Virus record (IMG/VR): IMGVR_UViG_2541047969_000007
Direction: 5' to 3' (one strand)
Length of the DNA: 9,240 nucleotides
DNA from: a virus
Lineage: Monodnaviria; Loebvirae; Hofneiviricota; Faserviricetes; Tubulavirales; Inoviridae
In this document: one piece after another, positions 887 through 7,311 of the stretch
Layout: each line of letters begins with the position of its first letter
Position numbering within the stretch: position 1 is the stretch's first letter
Program-made: the position numbers and the translations under genes
The notes under the pieces: model-generated
What the model was told of the DNA's origin: nothing
What the model saw: the letters and a program-made list of their open reading frames with translations, nothing else
Database searches by the model: none

Positions 887-2131
887 TCAGTTCAGGTTGT
901 CCCGGAACAGTTCACCGCTCCTCGCGGCGCTGCGGGGCGTCGCCCTGCTCCGGTCAACCTTTCTGACCTGAAGCATCACCATAATATCAGTCTTGTTGCT
1001 TTCACTGGTACGGGAACCGAAGAAGCTCCAGCCGGAACTGGCCTTACTGTCTTTCTGTTCAGCAAGGCCACCAAGTAAAATAATATCACCATCTGCAAGG
1101 CTGACTTCGGTTGTTACATCACGCTTGATAAGGGTTGGCGAGTTATTGACGCCGGTTTCAGTGGTCACAAAGTTGGAAAGCTGCTGCTGAATCTTGAGAT
1201 CCATTGTCCGACTTTTGATTGATGGCGTCACGTTAAACAAAACACCGCTGGAACGATATTCAACGGATTGCGTTGTCGTATTGTTATTCACCGTAACACT
1301 GCCCAGTACTGGCACATCAGAGCCGACTGAAAAAGACGCTGAGGCATTATTTTTTACCCGCAGTCGTGGCGCACTGACAACAGTAAAACGACTGTCGGTT
1401 TTCAGCAGATTGAAAATGGCATCAATGGAGCCGGTTCGAATATTGATAAAATTATCCAGTCCGGCAGCACCAACTGAAATATTGAATTTATCAGACAGAA
1501 TTTTAGCCGCTAAAAGAATGCCGGAGCCGTCAGACTGCGAGGTCTGAACCTCAAAAACATAACCAGAAACAACCACTTCATCACTCATCGTATCCAGCGA
1601 AGTGACCAGTGTTTTCAGGATGGCGATATCCTCTTTCGTACCATAATAAACCAGAATATCACCGGTTCGATTGATGTAGTTGCTTGCCCCTGATGAACCT
1701 TTTAGCGAATCGTCAGAAATCACGGCTCCACTGTTATTGAAGGAGCCTGAAACGTAGCCGCCAAGAATATCAGACAGGTAGGCAACAGAACGGTACTGAG
1801 GCGTATAAGTCCATGTATAACGTGGCTTAACCGGCTCTTTCGGCGTATAGGGCGCGATAAAATCAACACCCTTTTTCGTCCATATTCGAATGTTCATATT
1901 GCCAAGATAACGGGTTACAAATTCCCGTTCATCAATATCAGGTGTTAACCTGAATGTAATCATTCGTTCATCATTAACAAGCTGTGGATCTAGCATATAC
2001 GGGACTTTAAGCACCTCACTGTAAATAAGAGAAATAGCCTCCGGTAGCTTGACTTTATTTAATTCAAGCTCTGACCCTGCGAAAGCACATGAAGAAAATA
2101 GTAGCGTTAATGCGAGTAAAATCTTTTTCAT
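887..2131 (-). CDS. Secretin, filamentous-phage pIV-like outer-membrane export channel
   Basis: 414 aa. N-terminal signal peptide MKKILLALTLLFSSCAFA. C-terminal secretin-domain motifs (GSDVPVLGS and VSLADGDIILLGGL). Start overlaps the stop of the upstream Zot/pI gene (ATGA at 2131). Confidence 0.85.
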   Translation of the reverse strand: MKKILLALTLLFSSCAFAGSELELNKVKLPEAISLIYSEVLKVPYMLDPQLVNDERMITFRLTPDIDEREFVTRYLGNMNIRIWTKKGVDFIAPYTPKEPVKPRYTWTYTPQYRSVAYLSDILGGYVSGSFNNSGAVISDDSLKGSSGASNYINRTGDILVYYGTKEDIAILKTLVTSLDTMSDEVVVSGYVFEVQTSQSDGSGILLAAKILSDKFNISVGAAGLDNFINIRTGSIDAIFNLLKTDSRFTVVSAPRLRVKNNASASFSVGSDVPVLGSVTVNNNTTTQSVEYRSSGVLFNVTPSIKSRTMDLKIQQQLSNFVTTETGVNNSPTLIKRDVTTEVSLADGDIILLGGLAEQKDSKASSGWSFFGSRTSESNKTDIMVMLQVRKVDRSRATPRSAARSGELFRDNLN

Positions 2132-3156
2132 TATTTTTTCCCCGTATAAAGCGTCACACGCTCACCATCAATAATTCCGCTCATCAACATCCCTTTGTAA
2201 TTAAAACTGGATGCAGGAACGGCACGCAAAACACCGGCACCATTAACAAGAATCACAAACGCCCTGCCTTCACTGGTCATTCTCCCTGATATACGCCACT
2301 CGGTTGAAAGTGGCGGTTCAGCTGGTTCTGAGGGAGTATCTGGTGCTGGAGTAGCAGCGGAAGAACGAAACATGGCCGCATCACGTACATCTGTTGTAGT
2401 CAAATCTGGCGAGGGATCGCTTCGGCCAAACGTGCTGAAAAATGAGTAAATCAGCCAGCCTGACCCGATAAACATCAATGGAAAAAGCACAAGAAAGAAC
2501 CTGACTTTGCCAGAATTCCAGATGCTCTGGCGTTTATCTGTCTGCTTTTCATTACCGTTATTTCCTTCATAACTTTTGTAAAGTTCAAAAATATCAGGGT
2601 TATATTTATTGCGATAACTGGTGACGAGGTTGCTTTTATAGATTTTGTGGCCTGAATATACGTCAATGCAGTAATGATTATTCAGGCCCAACGCTTTCAG
2701 CTTGCGCATCCGGTAAGTTGTTTCTATTTTGTCTTTCAGAAAGCGAGCAATATTAGAAAGTGACTGATTTACAATAACCAAATCACAGCTAATACCCGTT
2801 TCAGGGTGCGTAAAATGACGATGTTCAGCAATAAATGATTTCTTCTCAGCCGTCATATCCTTATCGCTACCGAAGATTCGCCATGCTTCATCAATAACAA
2901 TTAAATCACCAAACTGGCAAAAGCTCCCTTCCCCACCTTTAAAAGGAAAGAAATCTGCTTTAAGCACATCATCATTATCCACAACAATAATTTCTCCCGT
3001 TGCATCAGGATAACGTTCGGTGATTTTATCTTTTTGTAAACCATAAATGTTCGTCACAACTCTCCGGCCGCTGGTAAATGCCGGAATAATGACATTGCAA
3101 ACGGCTTCATAACTTTTTCCTGAGCCGGGTATGCCAATATATGCAGAAATAGCCAT
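2131..3156 (-). CDS. Zot/pI-like phage assembly ATPase (inner-membrane morphogenesis protein)
   Basis: 341 aa. N-terminal Walker A P-loop GIPGSGKS. Hydrophobic segment (FFLVLFPLMFIGSGWLIYSFF) in the C-terminal third, typical of pI/Zot topology. Sits immediately upstream of the secretin gene. Confidence 0.85.
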   Translation of the reverse strand: MAISAYIGIPGSGKSYEAVCNVIIPAFTSGRRVVTNIYGLQKDKITERYPDATGEIIVVDNDDVLKADFFPFKGGEGSFCQFGDLIVIDEAWRIFGSDKDMTAEKKSFIAEHRHFTHPETGISCDLVIVNQSLSNIARFLKDKIETTYRMRKLKALGLNNHYCIDVYSGHKIYKSNLVTSYRNKYNPDIFELYKSYEGNNGNEKQTDKRQSIWNSGKVRFFLVLFPLMFIGSGWLIYSFFSTFGRSDPSPDLTTTDVRDAAMFRSSAATPAPDTPSEPAEPPLSTEWRISGRMTSEGRAFVILVNGAGVLRAVPASSFNYKGMLMSGIIDGERVTLYTGKK

Positions 3157-3459: not shown

Positions 3460-5172
3460 TTAGGCACTCAGAATAATACGGAGCGCAACAAATCCCCATA
3501 TAATCAGAAATATGGTTTCTACGGCGCTTCTGTTCTGCTCAATTAACGGACAATGGGAGTCAATTCTGTACTGGTGATTAAACACGCTGAATTCAACAAC
3601 GGGGCAGGATGCTGAACGAGAGCCGATGTTAAATTCGTTTGTAAAAGGCAACAAGTTAATAATTGGCGTTAAAATATCTCTTGCCGTTGGCGTTTCTTCA
3701 AGCTCAGGCTCTTTTACACCGGGATCTTCTCCCAAATCTATATTGCCATTATTTCCAGTGTCAGATCCTGAGTTGTTATTAATGGTAATATCAATATTGA
3801 CGTCAGCCCCTGCACTGTCAGATACAGGTGAAAGCATATCTAATAACGTTGGAGATAGCCTAAGTTCCGACATCGCAGAAGTTACTTCAGCCGGTGAAAC
3901 CTCTTTAAACGGTAAGCCGTTATAATCGGCATTAACGGCAGCTTCAGACCACAGCTCGTTAATCATGTCGGCAAGAAGTGCTGGCGATACACTAACACTA
4001 TCAAGATACTCCAGATAATCAATCATGGACTCAATATTTCCAGCCTCCAGTACTTCCGTCATGGCTTTATATTTGGTATTGGTCCAGATAGTAAGCTCAC
4101 TCTTTTCATCAATATCTTTTGCGGTGTAATCCTCTTTTTCAGGAACGGCACAAATCGTCGAATATCCACCATTTGACTGATTAGTCGTTTTACAAGGCGT
4201 GTTGTGATACTGATATTGCTTTCCTGCTGTTAAATAAGCAACGCTGTAATACATGGGAAGCCCTGCTACATTTTCATACATGGGAATACCTGCGGGAAAT
4301 GAAGATGCGGCCGGGTTGCTATACAAGTGTGTAATCTCAGGTATTTCATAAAATGAGGAAGGATAAGTAAACTTATAATTCTGTTCAGTAAAGGATACAT
4401 CTCCATTACTGTTGACAACTTTATTCGTCACAGTGCGTTCAAAATTCGTTAGTGTTTCAGTATAAGTACGCGAGTTATAGTCATTAAGATAATTTCTGGC
4501 AATTTCAGTTGGATTATCACCATAGTAATAAATTAGCTCTTTCGAATCCTGATAATAATAAAGTGCATTATCTGGCGTGGAATATCCTGTTTCAACACCT
4601 ACAACTGGAGAACCCGCATCCACATTATTACGACTAACATGAAGGATTACCGGACTTAATTCCTGTGGTTCAAAATTAACGGTTATCGTCTTACTTTCAC
4701 CACTTTGACCACTGTACGTTACTTCATATAAATTATCGGAAATCTTTTTACCGTTAGTCATTACCATTACCGAGCCGTCAGATGAACTCAAAGAAGACGG
4801 AACAAAAGATGATACAGCAGCAGCAATACCCGCCCACGTTGCAACACCGCTCATTTTGTATGATGAGGCAGCAGGCAAGTATTCGGCAGCATTAGCCGCA
4901 GCGCGGCCAACAAAAACACGGGTTGCTGTAAGCTGTGATGCCGTATAAATCGCATCATTGGCAGCAAAGCGACGAACAAGCACCCGGCCAACGACTTTAG
5001 GAATAACAGCCCGCGCAGCCACTGCTGCAATTGCTGGTACAAATGAATATGAATATCGGGGAAAGGAAACCCAGAGAAAGGAAAAAATAAAGGAATAAAC
5101 CGTCAGCCTCTTAGCCCAAGAATAACGACATAAGCTGAGACGATCCCCCATAAAAGGGAACCCAATTTCCAT
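3460..5172 (-). CDS. pIII-like adsorption / minor coat protein; start uncertain
   Basis: 570 aa. Gly/Ser/Asn-rich linker (INNNSGSDTGNNGNIDLGEDPG). C-terminal membrane anchor (IFLIIWGFVALRIILSA). Strong SD GGAGA 7 nt upstream of the ATG at 5172. Position after the major coat gene. Confidence 0.6.
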   Translation of the reverse strand: MEIGFPFMGDRLSLCRYSWAKRLTVYSFIFSFLWVSFPRYSYSFVPAIAAVAARAVIPKVVGRVLVRRFAANDAIYTASQLTATRVFVGRAAANAAEYLPAASSYKMSGVATWAGIAAAVSSFVPSSLSSSDGSVMVMTNGKKISDNLYEVTYSGQSGESKTITVNFEPQELSPVILHVSRNNVDAGSPVVGVETGYSTPDNALYYYQDSKELIYYYGDNPTEIARNYLNDYNSRTYTETLTNFERTVTNKVVNSNGDVSFTEQNYKFTYPSSFYEIPEITHLYSNPAASSFPAGIPMYENVAGLPMYYSVAYLTAGKQYQYHNTPCKTTNQSNGGYSTICAVPEKEDYTAKDIDEKSELTIWTNTKYKAMTEVLEAGNIESMIDYLEYLDSVSVSPALLADMINELWSEAAVNADYNGLPFKEVSPAEVTSAMSELRLSPTLLDMLSPVSDSAGADVNIDITINNNSGSDTGNNGNIDLGEDPGVKEPELEETPTARDILTPIINLLPFTNEFNIGSRSASCPVVEFSVFNHQYRIDSHCPLIEQNRSAVETIFLIIWGFVALRIILSA

Positions 5173-5194
5173 AATTCAATCTCCATAATAACCT

Positions 5195-5223
5195 CAAGTA
5201 AAACGGGCGATATTGCATCGCCC
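5195..5223 (-). terminator. Intrinsic terminator downstream of the major coat gene
   Basis: Perfect 7-bp stem GGGCGAT/ATCGCCC (5205..5211 and 5217..5223) with a 5-nt loop, followed on the minus-strand transcript by GUUUUACUU (5195..5204). Lies between the pVIII stop (5237) and the pIII RBS. Confidence 0.5.
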
Positions 5224-5236
5224 ATGAATAATGAAT

Positions 5237-5470
5237 TTATGCGGATTTAACGGTACGCAATACCCAGCGAACGCCAGCGACACCGGCATAAAGTGTTACC
5301 AGTGAAGCAGCAACGGCCATAATCGCAACCAGAACTGTACTGAAATCAATGCTGTTCGTCAGCGGCGATAAATCAACACCACTTGATGCCGCTCCTTCTG
5401 CAGCGAAAGTCGCGCCAGAAACAGCCATTAATGCAGGTACAGCCAGAAAACTAACGATTTTTTTAAACAT
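5237..5470 (-). CDS. Major coat protein (pVIII-like) precursor
   Basis: 77 aa. Signal peptide MFKKIVSFLAVPALMAVSGATFA. Mature part has an acidic N-terminus (AEGAASSGVD), a hydrophobic core and a basic C-terminus (RWVLRTVKSA). RBS GGAGA with 7-nt spacer. Confidence 0.75.
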   Translation of the reverse strand: MFKKIVSFLAVPALMAVSGATFAAEGAASSGVDLSPLTNSIDFSTVLVAIMAVAASLVTLYAGVAGVRWVLRTVKSA

Positions 5471-5504
5471 AACTCTATCTCCATTACATTTTAAAGGTTC
5501 GCAT

Positions 5505-5756
5505 TCAAGCAGTACGAACCATCTTTATTACCTGTCCCACACCTACAGAAAAAAGCCAGAGCAGCAGGACAGAGCCAAAACCTAATGTCCAGTAATTTCC
5601 CATTGCAGAATAATCAATTTGATGAAATGGTTCAGAACGTACCATTATTGCCTGACATTCTTTTGCATTGTTCGCATTACATAAATAACCTTCAATACGG
5701 TAACCATTTTCAGGAATATGATTATCAAACTGAATATCGAAACCTGATGCATCCAT
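5505..5756 (-). CDS. Small protein with C-terminal transmembrane helix (possible minor virion or assembly protein)
   Basis: 83 aa. C-terminal hydrophobic helix WTLGFGSVLLLWLFSVGVGQVI. Start overlaps the stop of the upstream ssb-like gene (ATGA). Position is between the ssb and major coat genes. Confidence 0.4.
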   Translation of the reverse strand: MDASGFDIQFDNHIPENGYRIEGYLCNANNAKECQAIMVRSEPFHQIDYSAMGNYWTLGFGSVLLLWLFSVGVGQVIKMVRTA

Positions 5757-5758
5757 AA

Positions 5759-6076
5759 TCAGCCTTTTATTTCAGTAATGCCGCCATCTGATGAAATGTT
5801 ATAAGTTACTCCTTCCCTCCCCTCCATTGACCAGACGCGAACATATACAGGTATCTGGACTAACTTACCGATAAAATTATTTGCCTGATTCATTACACCG
5901 GCATTAACAAGAGCCTGAGATACACGAATAATAATCTGGTCTTGCTTAGTGCCGCCAAAACCATCAGGAATCTCTAAGCCAACACCAATTTCATTATAGT
6001 ATCCCTGACCATTGACCTTATTACGCTGGCGAGCACCAAGCATTTTACCTTTTACAAAAAGACCATAATTAGACAT
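5759..6076 (-). CDS. Putative ssDNA-binding protein (gene V-like), assigned by position
   Basis: 105 aa. Immediately downstream of rep with a strong SD (AGGAGAG). Size and location match inovirus gV or rstB-type proteins; no diagnostic motif recognised. Confidence 0.4.
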   Translation of the reverse strand: MSNYGLFVKGKMLGARQRNKVNGQGYYNEIGVGLEIPDGFGGTKQDQIIIRVSQALVNAGVMNQANNFIGKLVQIPVYVRVWSMEGREGVTYNISSDGGITEIKG

Positions 6077-6087
6077 ATCACTCTCCT

Positions 6088-7140
6088 TTAATGCCAGTTA
6101 CTGGCATGTGAAATACGGTTATAATCGAAAATTAAACCTTTCTCATAAACCCATGATGGAATTTTGGCTGGTTTGGCTTCAAGAGTACGAACCAACGGAA
6201 CAACGTTATTAGAATCCGGTGACTCACAATAAAAGTTAATATCTATTCCGAAAGAAAGTAATTCTTTACGGTGTCGGTAGAATGTAGGTTTCGGTAACAT
6301 CTCTTTCATGTTCGCGCCCTGCTTCCACAATAAATATGTAGACTGTATTTTTCTTGGGAGATTAATTATTTTTTCATCAGTTAATATAGTATTTTGATTC
6401 ATTTCTATTCTCCCTACATAGTCAGAGAATAATTTATTGGGCGTCTCAATATTCCAGCTATTACCAAGCGTAAGATTCAAATCAATTAATTCAGTTGTTC
6501 TTAATGTTAATTCAATGCGTAATTTATCTTTTGACCAGTCCAGTAAACCAGCTTTAACGAATTCGTCTGCCATCTGGTGCCCTTTTTTGCCAGATGTATG
6601 CTCATCATATTTTGAATAAAATTTCAGGCTCCAACGACGGGAGTTTTTCCCTAAGTAAACAGTGCCACCTTTACCACAGGCGCGACCGTGGCGAGTTTTA
6701 GCTTTAAATTCTGCGGCATATAACCATGCGCGGACATTTTCTAATGTTGACAATGAATACATGTAATTGATATCGATGCGCGAGATCTTAAATTGCCCTT
6801 CCATGACCTGCCGATAGGATGGTAGATCATGAGGAATATGCAGTAATGCCAATATTCTGGCGTAAGCTGTTAACACCAACCCTTGCAAATCGTCGGAACC
6901 GATAACAGAGTGACCTTGCAAAAACTTTGATGGATTACCGTCAATGTAGAGATGTGTTGCCCGACCTTCACCATCAGATCCAACAGACCTTACTTTCATT
7001 GTGGACTCATGCGAACCGCGAACGGTCAACCGTTTTACTGTTTCCCACTCCACTGCACCGTCAGCATCGACGCTGACGACACTACCAGCCGGTAACGGTC
7101 GGTGTGTGCAAGGCAGGATTCCGGTAAACCAGTCGATCAT
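6088..7140 (-). CDS. Rolling-circle replication initiation protein (pII/RstA-like)
   Basis: 350 aa. First gene of the minus-strand phage operon, divergent from the HTH repressor. Sequence resembles phage replication-initiator proteins, with conserved Tyr/Lys-rich segments (YLGKNSRRWSLKFYSKYDEH, LRIELTLR). Confidence 0.7.
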   Translation of the reverse strand: MIDWFTGILPCTHRPLPAGSVVSVDADGAVEWETVKRLTVRGSHESTMKVRSVGSDGEGRATHLYIDGNPSKFLQGHSVIGSDDLQGLVLTAYARILALLHIPHDLPSYRQVMEGQFKISRIDINYMYSLSTLENVRAWLYAAEFKAKTRHGRACGKGGTVYLGKNSRRWSLKFYSKYDEHTSGKKGHQMADEFVKAGLLDWSKDKLRIELTLRTTELIDLNLTLGNSWNIETPNKLFSDYVGRIEMNQNTILTDEKIINLPRKIQSTYLLWKQGANMKEMLPKPTFYRHRKELLSFGIDINFYCESPDSNNVVPLVRTLEAKPAKIPSWVYEKGLIFDYNRISHASNWH

Positions 7141-7311
7141 AAGTAGTCACACCCATCAAAATATGTGTCAATAGTCATTTGTGAGCAGATTGAATGGTCA
7201 CAATGTAATATGCTCAGTTCTGACAGTCAATACATTTGCAATGTTTAAATTGTCAGAAATGAGCATCAAATCTAACTATTGAAAAACCACTGTTAAGATG
7301 GAGCCAAGTAG
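7141..7311. promoter_or_regulatory. Divergent control region between rep and repressor genes (promoters and candidate operators or origin)
   Basis: 171-bp AT-rich intergenic region between divergent genes. Direct repeats GTCAATA..CATTTG at 7167..7181 and 7226..7238. CATCAAA at 7154..7160 and 7264..7270. TTGTCA -35-like hexamer at 7250..7255. SD GGAG at 7300..7303 for the repressor gene. Confidence 0.5.

Follow-up and report, generated by a model that had tools for sequence, protein, structure and literature searches.

Repeats between gene II and the repressor gene of a CUS-1/YpfΦ-type filamentous prophage are probably repressor operators

What do the repeats do that lie between the replication initiator gene (gene II) and the divergently oriented helix-turn-helix (HTH) repressor gene of a filamentous prophage? 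Here, we address this question for the Inoviridae record IMGVR_UViG_2541047969_000007, a stretch of 9,240 nucleotides (nt), referred to as the window, which consists of one 9145-bp prophage unit of the CUS-1/YpfΦ type plus 95 bp of the next tandem copy. Its control region, a 171-bp gap (positions 7141-7311) that we confirmed between the ATG of gene II (7140, minus strand) and the ATG of the HTH gene (7312), had been described in an initial annotation as carrying several short repeats that could be repressor operators, iterons bound by the gene II product (Rep) or the plus-strand origin. We conclude that the repeats are probably operators of the repressor, with three predicted sites (O_A, O_B, and O_C) and a weaker fourth (O_D) arranged around the gene II promoter, and not iterons or an origin. 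The sites occur beyond chance expectation, their half-sites are conserved, and they covary with the recognition helix of the repressor, independently of Rep.

All of the strings reported earlier are indeed present, that is, GTCAATAGTCATTTG at 7167-7181 and GTCAATACATTTG at 7226-7238 as two copies of a gapped direct repeat, GTCAATA(GT)CATTTG (a 7-mer plus a 6-mer), CATCAAA at 7154-7160 and 7264-7270, and the dyad TGACAGTCA at 7221-7229. When the 171 bp were shuffled 2000 times with dinucleotides preserved, the two copies of CATCAAA proved to be at chance level (2 repeated 7-mers compared to a mean of 2.2, equalled or exceeded in 56% of shuffles), as is the dyad (one 4-N1-4 dyad compared to a mean of 1.07, equalled or exceeded in 65%), and the gapped direct repeat is marginal (equalled or exceeded in 4%). 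The motifs are also poorly conserved in the nearest diverged relative (locus L009; compared loci carry L numbers), where CACCATA and CATTAAA stand in place of CATCAAA and GTCAATTGGTTTG stands in place of the second copy of the repeat. Rather than functional units, they are pieces of 18-bp sites or of a promoter −35 element: the first copy of the direct repeat corresponds to the flank and left half of O_A, TGACAGTCA to the right half of O_B together with the −35 element of the predicted gene II promoter (P_rep), the second CATCAAA begins within the last 3 nt of O_C, and the second GTCAATA is the P_rep −35 element read on the opposite strand. The feature is thus real but was wrongly parsed.

A repeat finder returned an imperfect palindrome with 27-nt arms (7210-7236 and 7240-7266) and a 25-nt unit in common with 7163-7187. 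The core STCA-N4-TGAS lies at 7174-7185, 7213-7224, and 7252-7263, each step being exactly 39 bp from centre to centre. Across the window as a whole, there are four such cores compared to 0.45 expected, and none of the 2000 shuffles gave three copies in the region. Using the relatives, we extended this core to an 18-bp pseudo-palindrome with the consensus ATGCTCA-N4-TGAGCAT. At a threshold of 11 out of 14 consensus positions, the 18-mer has five matches in the phage genome (0.54 in shuffles), four of them within a single 160-bp stretch, 7171-7329 (O_A to O_D, Table 1). The possibility that the motifs are functionless chance repeats in an AT-rich intergenic region is therefore true for two of the three original motifs, CATCAAA and the dyad, with the gapped repeat being marginal, but for the region as a whole it is scarcely credible, since chance falls far short of explaining the re-parsed sites, which independent lineages have also kept.

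This conservation is concentrated in the half-sites. L009 encodes a repressor that is 85% identical to that of the window and has the same recognition helix. Its control region differs from that of the window at 38 of 171 positions overall, compared to only 1 of 24 positions in the core half-sites (Fisher p = 0.018), and this single change (C to G) still fits the degenerate consensus. Applied to L009 independently, the repeat finder again gave three copies at 39/39-bp spacing, and O_B is there a perfect GTCA-GATC-TGAC. The central 4 nt of the sites vary freely among relatives, and it is in these nucleotides of O_A and O_B that the two differences between the window and YpfΦ are found. The fourth site, O_D, may be a weaker operator and is a possible candidate for autoregulation on the basis of its sequence and position; it is found at 10 to 11 of 14 positions and at the same 62- to 63-bp distance in L009, L012, and L016 and is degenerate in L014.

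Whether the sites serve the repressor or Rep is decided by natural swaps, of which we found three kinds. First, Escherichia coli DA33137, like its relatives, encodes a Rep that is identical at 346 of 350 residues beside a repressor that is only 40% identical, with an unrelated intergenic region that lacks the motifs of the window. Homology between DA33137 and the window ends exactly at the Rep ATG and restarts ~10 nt past the repressor stop, so that a near-identical initiator (99%), a dissimilar repressor, an unrelated control region, and sharp boundaries together mark, at the sequence level, a putative heteroimmune type. This type has three repeats of its own, of the form GTGACA...TTGT, which are also conserved in Klebsiella spallanzanii. 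Second, repressors with the recognition helix S-V/I-S-T-L-V-R-I occur beside unrelated initiators, namely a 492-amino-acid (aa) G2P protein in L012, a 315-aa G2P protein in L016, a 470-aa open reading frame (ORF) in L074, and, in L014 from Aeromonas veronii, a Rep_trans/RstA-like protein with RstB. All four loci carry a TGTCAAT-flanked O_A and an O_C, the latter matching the consensus at 14 of 14 positions in L012, L016, and L074 and at 13 of 14 in L014, ~80 bp apart and with their order with respect to the repressor ATG unchanged; O_A with its TGTCAAT left flank is kept in L009 as well. Third, repressors with an altered helix have altered sites: with N38/R40 (UPΦ-like L006, 75% identical) or T38/R40 (L019, an Amylibacter metagenome-assembled genome, 47%), the sites are of the form ATAGACA-N4-TGTCTTT instead. 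Residues 38 and 40 are at the start of the recognition helix, which an AlphaFold model places at residues 39-46 (S38-VSTLVRIA). Taken together, the same-Rep swap, the same-helix swaps, and the pairs of altered helix and altered site indicate that the sites follow the repressor, not Rep.

The second immunity type that shares this Rep (L003 3254-3377; L020, L022) also occurs in K. spallanzanii. Its repressor is WP_000069317 (150 aa), its three repeats are AGAACAATTTTGTGAC, GTCACACAAATGT, and GTGACATATTTGTTCT, and, read by eye, it has a TTGAGA-17-TACATT promoter and retains an AGATCT spacer motif.

These swaps bear directly on the alternative that the repeats serve Rep (gpII), either as iterons or other binding sites or as a plus-strand origin that it nicks. 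Although the region abuts gene II and its long imperfect palindrome (7210-7236/7240-7266) is origin-like, a 99% identical Rep is found beside an unrelated intergenic region, and the same motifs are found beside unrelated initiator families. Moreover, a separate element past the repressor gene behaves as an origin should, in that it covaries with Rep, whereas 7141-7311 does not. This element consists of two hairpins (Table 1), which are kept in all immunity types with this Rep and which are probably the plus-strand origin cognate to it. Over 38 nt, the element, including the hairpin at 7786-7816, is 92% identical to the intergenic region of phage I2-2 on the viral-sense (minus) strand. The 7786-7816 hairpin co-occurs with the 350-aa G2P-type Rep and is absent from loci with other initiators; the loci that have this Rep and no hairpin match are contig or locus ends and one shortened array. 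The viral-sense strand of the element folds with z = −5.1.

The shortened array, in E. coli O114:H49 strain 90-9280 (L004, NZ_CP024240.1 582957-589197), is a tandem element with a period of 1831 bp (units 3892-5722 and so on) that consists of Rep, the repressor, and the 5′ part of gene V, comparable to a miniphage or to RS1, the satellite of CTXφ. Its units are joined within the loop of the probable origin hairpin, at the equivalent of window position 7803|7804; such a junction is what aberrant rolling-circle initiation or termination at a nick site would produce, and it may thus mark the Rep nick site. Given this junction, the Rep-linked hairpin, and the exchange of the intergenic region beside a constant Rep, we see almost no room for iterons or an origin within 7141-7311. 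An alternative reading of CACGTTCTTTATTGTG (7810-7825, plus strand) as an Ff-like gpII nick site was rejected; the string is absent from the intergenic region of I2-2 and is not on the packaged strand but on its complement, whereas the I2-2 homology is to the hairpin on the other strand.

A further alternative is that O_B and O_C, which together make up a 57-nt palindrome, act as a hairpin in the single-stranded viral DNA and thereby serve as a packaging signal, a folded attP, or a minus-strand origin. The viral-sense strand does fold here (−14.8 kcal/mol, z = −5.2), but the corresponding segment of L009 folds differently (−7.2 kcal/mol, z = −1.8), with the half-sites alone being kept and without compensatory changes. 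In addition, O_B is missing from L012, L014, and L016, and a dif-like attachment site is located elsewhere, at ~9133-9160. A hairpin function is therefore very improbable, and the long palindrome is best read, from its sequence, as a by-product of two inverted operator copies.

Upstream of gene II, −35 and −10 hexamers of the sigma-70 type, with a spacing (17 nt) inside the 16- to 18-nt range, are conserved among relatives. The predicted promoter P_rep would start transcription near 7195. Its layout, TTGACN-17-TAnnnT, is also found in YpfΦ (L017), L009, L006, L012, L014, and L016, and TTGACA and TAGGAT in L074 are readable as the corresponding hexamers. In six loci, P_rep is 80 to 82 nt from the repressor ATG, whereas its distance to the first leftward gene ranges from −1 to 98 nt; fixed on the one side and variable on the other, P_rep appears to be part of the repressor cassette rather than of the initiator gene. 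A second leftward promoter, TTAACA-16-TAGATT (7296..7269), was rejected because it is not conserved in L009. For the repressor gene itself, there are three promoter candidates (Table 1). The first belongs to a TGnTA(A/G)nAT-GG block found in six loci, which sits 12 nt before the repressor ATG and is directly followed by GGAG, 8 nt before the ATG; a −10 element at 7291-7299 would leave this Shine-Dalgarno sequence outside the transcript.

The TGTCAAT flank of O_A is conserved in its own right. It adjoins the leftmost operator even where the half-sites differ (L006 2852-2858, L024, and L025) and in loci from Vibrio and Aeromonas, and is likewise invariant in L014 (2352-2358), L016, and L074. Its reverse complement contains TTGACA, yet no −10 element follows it.

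An invariant flank that does not depend on the type of repressor would also fit a different explanation, namely that the conserved bases are mainly sites for host regulators such as RovA/SlyA, LexA, IHF, or CRP. PMC4266046, citing Cathelyn 2006, reports that in Yersinia pestis RovA acts on this promoter, binding the putative YPO2274 promoter region and repressing phage genes. Nevertheless, the palindromes change with the repressor helix inside one host species and are common to phages of Escherichia, Yersinia, and Aeromonas. Searching the region and 50 bp on either side (7091-7360), we found no LexA box (CTG-N10-CAG). A CRP site was rejected on reading by eye because the lone TGTGA...TCACA pair is spaced at 13 nt and not 6 nt, and a by-eye candidate for IHF does not fit the spacing rules. 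We therefore consider it unlikely, by a wide margin, that host regulators account for most of the conserved bases.

The repressor belongs to the XRE/Cro-CI HTH_3 DNA-binding proteins. Pfam HTH_3 (PF01381) matches residues 27-68 with 38.1 bits, compared to a cutoff of 23, and the AlphaFold model has a five-helix N-terminal domain (predicted local distance difference test, pLDDT, 84-90), whereas the C-terminal half is modelled with low confidence (pLDDT 53-71). The protein does not belong to the RstR family: it scores 19.7 bits against NCBIfam NF041951 (phage_RstR), for which the cutoff is 80, and the similarity is limited to the generic HTH. Pfam detects no S24 peptidase domain in the repressor, and RecA-mediated self-cleavage is accordingly not expected.

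A relative of the repressor is also found outside phages. In E. coli and Salmonella, IncP-like conjugative plasmids of ~41 kb carry the gene for a 122-aa protein that has the same HTH as the repressor, without a single difference (E. coli plasmid NZ_CP127008.1, 15686-16054; L011/L026), with ~93% nucleotide identity over window positions 7351-7485. The gene follows a recombinase gene and lies near trb genes, and (G/C)TCATTGCTGA(G/C) occurs three times on the plasmid (4506, 10596, and 37707).

Several observations weigh against repressor operators as the explanation or fit it poorly. (i) None of O_A, O_B, and O_C is a perfect palindrome (11 to 12 of 14 positions), and O_B, which overlaps the promoter, is absent from the L012, L014, and L016 layouts. 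(ii) The 39-bp spacing amounts to 3.7 helical turns, which would not place neighbouring dimers on one face of the DNA, and the distance between O_A and O_C is 78 bp in the window compared to 81 bp in L012, L014, and L074; given this variation and the off-phase spacing, simple face-to-face cooperativity is not obvious. (iii) The conservation of O_D may be due to coding constraint. (iv) There is an extra left half-site, ATGGTCA, at 7194-7200, and an operator-core match at 7772-7783 lies within the probable origin hairpin. (v) The TGTCAAT flank, kept across differing operator types, is not accounted for by the operators, and, given the RovA report in PMC4266046, some conserved bases may serve host factors. 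(vi) The repressor promoter has no unambiguous placement among its three candidates. (vii) A reverse search with the perfect 18-mer ATGCTCANNNNTGAGCAT in viral contigs of IMG/VR gave at least 120 stretches, mostly by chance; among the matches listed, only one adjoined a relative of the repressor (L074, 67 nt away). (viii) No operator cluster was found on the 41.7-kb IncP-like plasmid, either within 2.5 kb of the homologue or across the plasmid, a result that neither supports nor contradicts the operators proposed for the phage.

Repressor operators nonetheless remain our preferred explanation, and they suggest a simple model of how the region may work, in which binding by the repressor, its stoichiometry and cooperativity, the transcription starts, the direction of autoregulation, and the route of induction are all predictions from sequence. 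Dimers of the 148-aa repressor would occupy O_A, O_B, and O_C. With O_B filling the P_rep spacer, O_A just downstream of the predicted start, and O_C just upstream of the −35 element, the bound sites would exclude RNA polymerase from the gene II promoter, so that replication and the downstream assembly operon would be off and the prophage quiescent. O_C and O_D together could permit autoregulation of the repressor. With neither a LexA box nor a peptidase domain, induction would seem to involve an antirepressor or a host factor.

Of the three proposals in the initial annotation, operators find comparative support, as the predicted sites travel with the repressor and its recognition helix, and the two Rep-based proposals are not supported; the motifs singled out in it are not the functional units. 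Its broader suggestion of a divergent switch between replication and repression is reasonable and agrees with what PMC4266046 describes for YpfΦ.

How does this arrangement compare with known systems? As in CTXφ, repressor and initiator genes are divergent around a compact region, the probable origin is beyond the repressor gene, like ig-1, and integration at dif gives tandem arrays. The exchange of repressor and control region between otherwise near-identical phages that we describe here mirrors the heteroimmune rstR/ig-2 alleles of CTXφ, reportedly described by Kimsey and Waldor in 1998. The two systems differ in that the repressor here is not of the RstR family and the initiator is a G2P protein (Ff/I2-2 type) and not a Rep_trans RstA. 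In CTXφ, the 138-bp ig-2 between rstR and rstA holds three RstR sites (PMC4762005), compared to 171 bp with three to four predicted sites here. Finally, PrstA is corepressed by LexA (PMC9502458), in contrast to the lack of a LexA box here.

The lambdoid cI/OR system shares with the present locus several pseudo-palindromic operators (predicted ones here) for an HTH repressor that overlap divergent promoters, a specificity that depends on the residues with which the recognition helix begins, and mosaic, exchangeable immunity regions. It differs in that lambdoid operators are adjacent (~23 to 24 bp) and not 39 bp apart, in that the present repressor has no S24 peptidase domain, and in that nothing like Cro is encoded opposite the present repressor, the leftward operon opening with the initiator. 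Phage I2-2 (Lineavirus), with which the prophage shares the 38-nt hairpin element and a gene II that is 58% identical, is a non-integrating phage that lacks a repressor and an immunity cassette (PMC7307601), and nothing in it corresponds to 7141-7311.

For the prophage type itself, previous work places YPO2273 in the position of rstR, with a role that "awaits experimental demonstration," and the YpfΦ intergenic region is "believed to be involved in transcription initiation" (PMC4266046). The YpfΦ/CUS-1 literature consulted does not describe an operator, a promoter, or an origin, and the UPΦ paper mentions neither a repressor nor an operator.

The window crosses a junction between tandem copies, with positions 1-95 repeated at 9146-9240. 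A megablast search of 6000-8300 against a phage collection gave no match, and the phage was identified through tblastn, which matched I2-2, and through matches in E. coli genomes. Of the 5426 complete E. coli genomes, 98 contain this DNA at an identity of at least 99%, with UTI89, NC101, NU14, and SF-173 among them. In UTI89, NC101, and SF-173, the prophage sits in tandem at dif beside hipA, and the SF-173 array adjoins hipBA. Y. pestis NCTC5923 (YpfΦ) encodes the same repressor (100% identity), and only 2 nt of its 171-bp control region depart from the window, which makes the window the CUS-1/YpfΦ phage type of PMC4266046; CUS-1 is the prophage of E. coli O18:K1:H7 and YpfΦ that of Y. pestis.

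Among the genes past the probable origin (Table 1), one of the accessory ORFs is annotated as an ECs_2282-family putative zinc-binding protein. A variant of the prophage in E. coli A20 (L002, NZ_CP028755.1) differs at 4 nt in the control region and has gene III broken by an IS21-family element; at 4495-5800, a gene for a TIR-domain protein and a second ORF replace the accessory genes at 8309-9063 of the window. The TIR gene may be defence cargo in a variable accessory slot.

Table 1. Features of the window and of its control region (strand as + or -; a point where no strand applies)
Feature	Positions	Strand	Remarks
Secretin gene	887-2131	-	
Gene I/Zot homologue	2131-3156	-	
Small coat-size ORFs and a 570-aa ORF in gene III position		-	
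Gene V	5759-6076	-	
Gene II, rolling-circle initiator (G2P family)	6088-7140	-	Pfam Phage_CRI (1e-73) and G2P_X_C; TIGR01629; gene under P_rep
Divergent control region, gene II (leftward)/HTH repressor gene (rightward)	7141-7311	.	ORF map, Pfam
Swappable immunity cassette (control region and repressor gene)	7141-7767	.	DA33137 homology boundaries
TGTCAAT flank of O_A	7166-7172	.	Part of the first copy of the direct repeat; invariant across loci
O_A, predicted operator	7171-7188	.	ATAGTCA TTTG TGAGCAG, 11/14; about +8 to +25 from the predicted P_rep start
P_rep, predicted sigma-70 promoter for gene II	7202-7230	-	−35 TTGACT 7230..7225; 17-nt spacer; −10 TACATT 7207..7202
Alternative rightward −10 candidate TGTAAT	7204-7209	+	TATAAT in L009
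O_B, predicted operator	7210-7227	.	ATGCTCA GTTC TGACAGT, 11/14; within the 17-nt P_rep spacer
O_C, predicted operator	7249-7266	.	ATTGTCA GAAA TGAGCAT, 12/14; upstream of the P_rep −35, about −54 to −71
Alternative repressor promoter candidate TTGTCA-18-AACTAT	7250-7279	+	
Conserved TGtTAAGAT (extended −10-like), then GGAG Shine-Dalgarno	7291-7303	+	Candidate repressor promoter and/or translation-initiation region
148-aa XRE-type HTH repressor	7312-7758	+	100% identical to YpfΦ YPO2273; PHROG 3557
O_D, possible fourth operator	7312-7329	.	ATGGGCA ACAA TGAGCAT, 12/14; starts at the repressor ATG, 63 bp from O_C
Two conserved hairpins, GTCTCA-GGAA-TGAGAC and AACGTGCAGT...ACTGCACGTT	7769-7816	-	Just past the repressor stop; outside the switch; probable plus-strand origin
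Three accessory ORFs past the probable origin	7858-9063	+	PHROGs 4174, 4852, and 6723; without function assignment
dif-like site	~9133-9160	-	GGTGCGCATAATGTACGACTCGTTATGT; XerC arm a perfect match to E. coli dif

From its sequence, 7141-7311 is best described as the control region of a known prophage, conventional in having several operators; the predicted operators and promoter are newly described, and the switch resembles that of CTXφ. A bolder reading, which we advance tentatively and consider rather doubtful, is that a portable cassette, made up of the repressor with its operators and the promoter of the initiator, has moved across at least three types of initiator (the 350-aa G2P, larger G2P-like, and RstA-type Rep_trans proteins of phages from Escherichia, Yersinia, and Aeromonas), with a specificity code at residues 38 and 40 and a higher-order complex on the DNA. 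If this were true, a change from S..S to N/T..R at residues 38/40 would retarget the half-site from TGAGCA to TGTC and would define immunity groups of inoviruses, and the 39-bp spacing, being off-phase, would suggest, along with the invariant TGTCAAT flank and the site at the start codon, a complex unlike that of lambda or 434.

With or without such a cassette, the predicted operators matter for the biology of these prophages. Extraintestinal pathogenic E. coli (UTI89, NC101, and ST131 isolates) and pandemic Y. pestis carry prophages of the CUS-1/YpfΦ type at dif, and these prophages have been linked to fitness within the host; with an operator consensus, a promoter position, and cassette boundaries at hand, the question of how they are silenced or induced is reduced to a few mutations and gel-shift probes. 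The types of operator and repressor also allow prophages to be sorted by sequence into immunity types. At least three such types share one Rep in E. coli, which bears on superinfection and on heterogeneous tandem arrays at dif.

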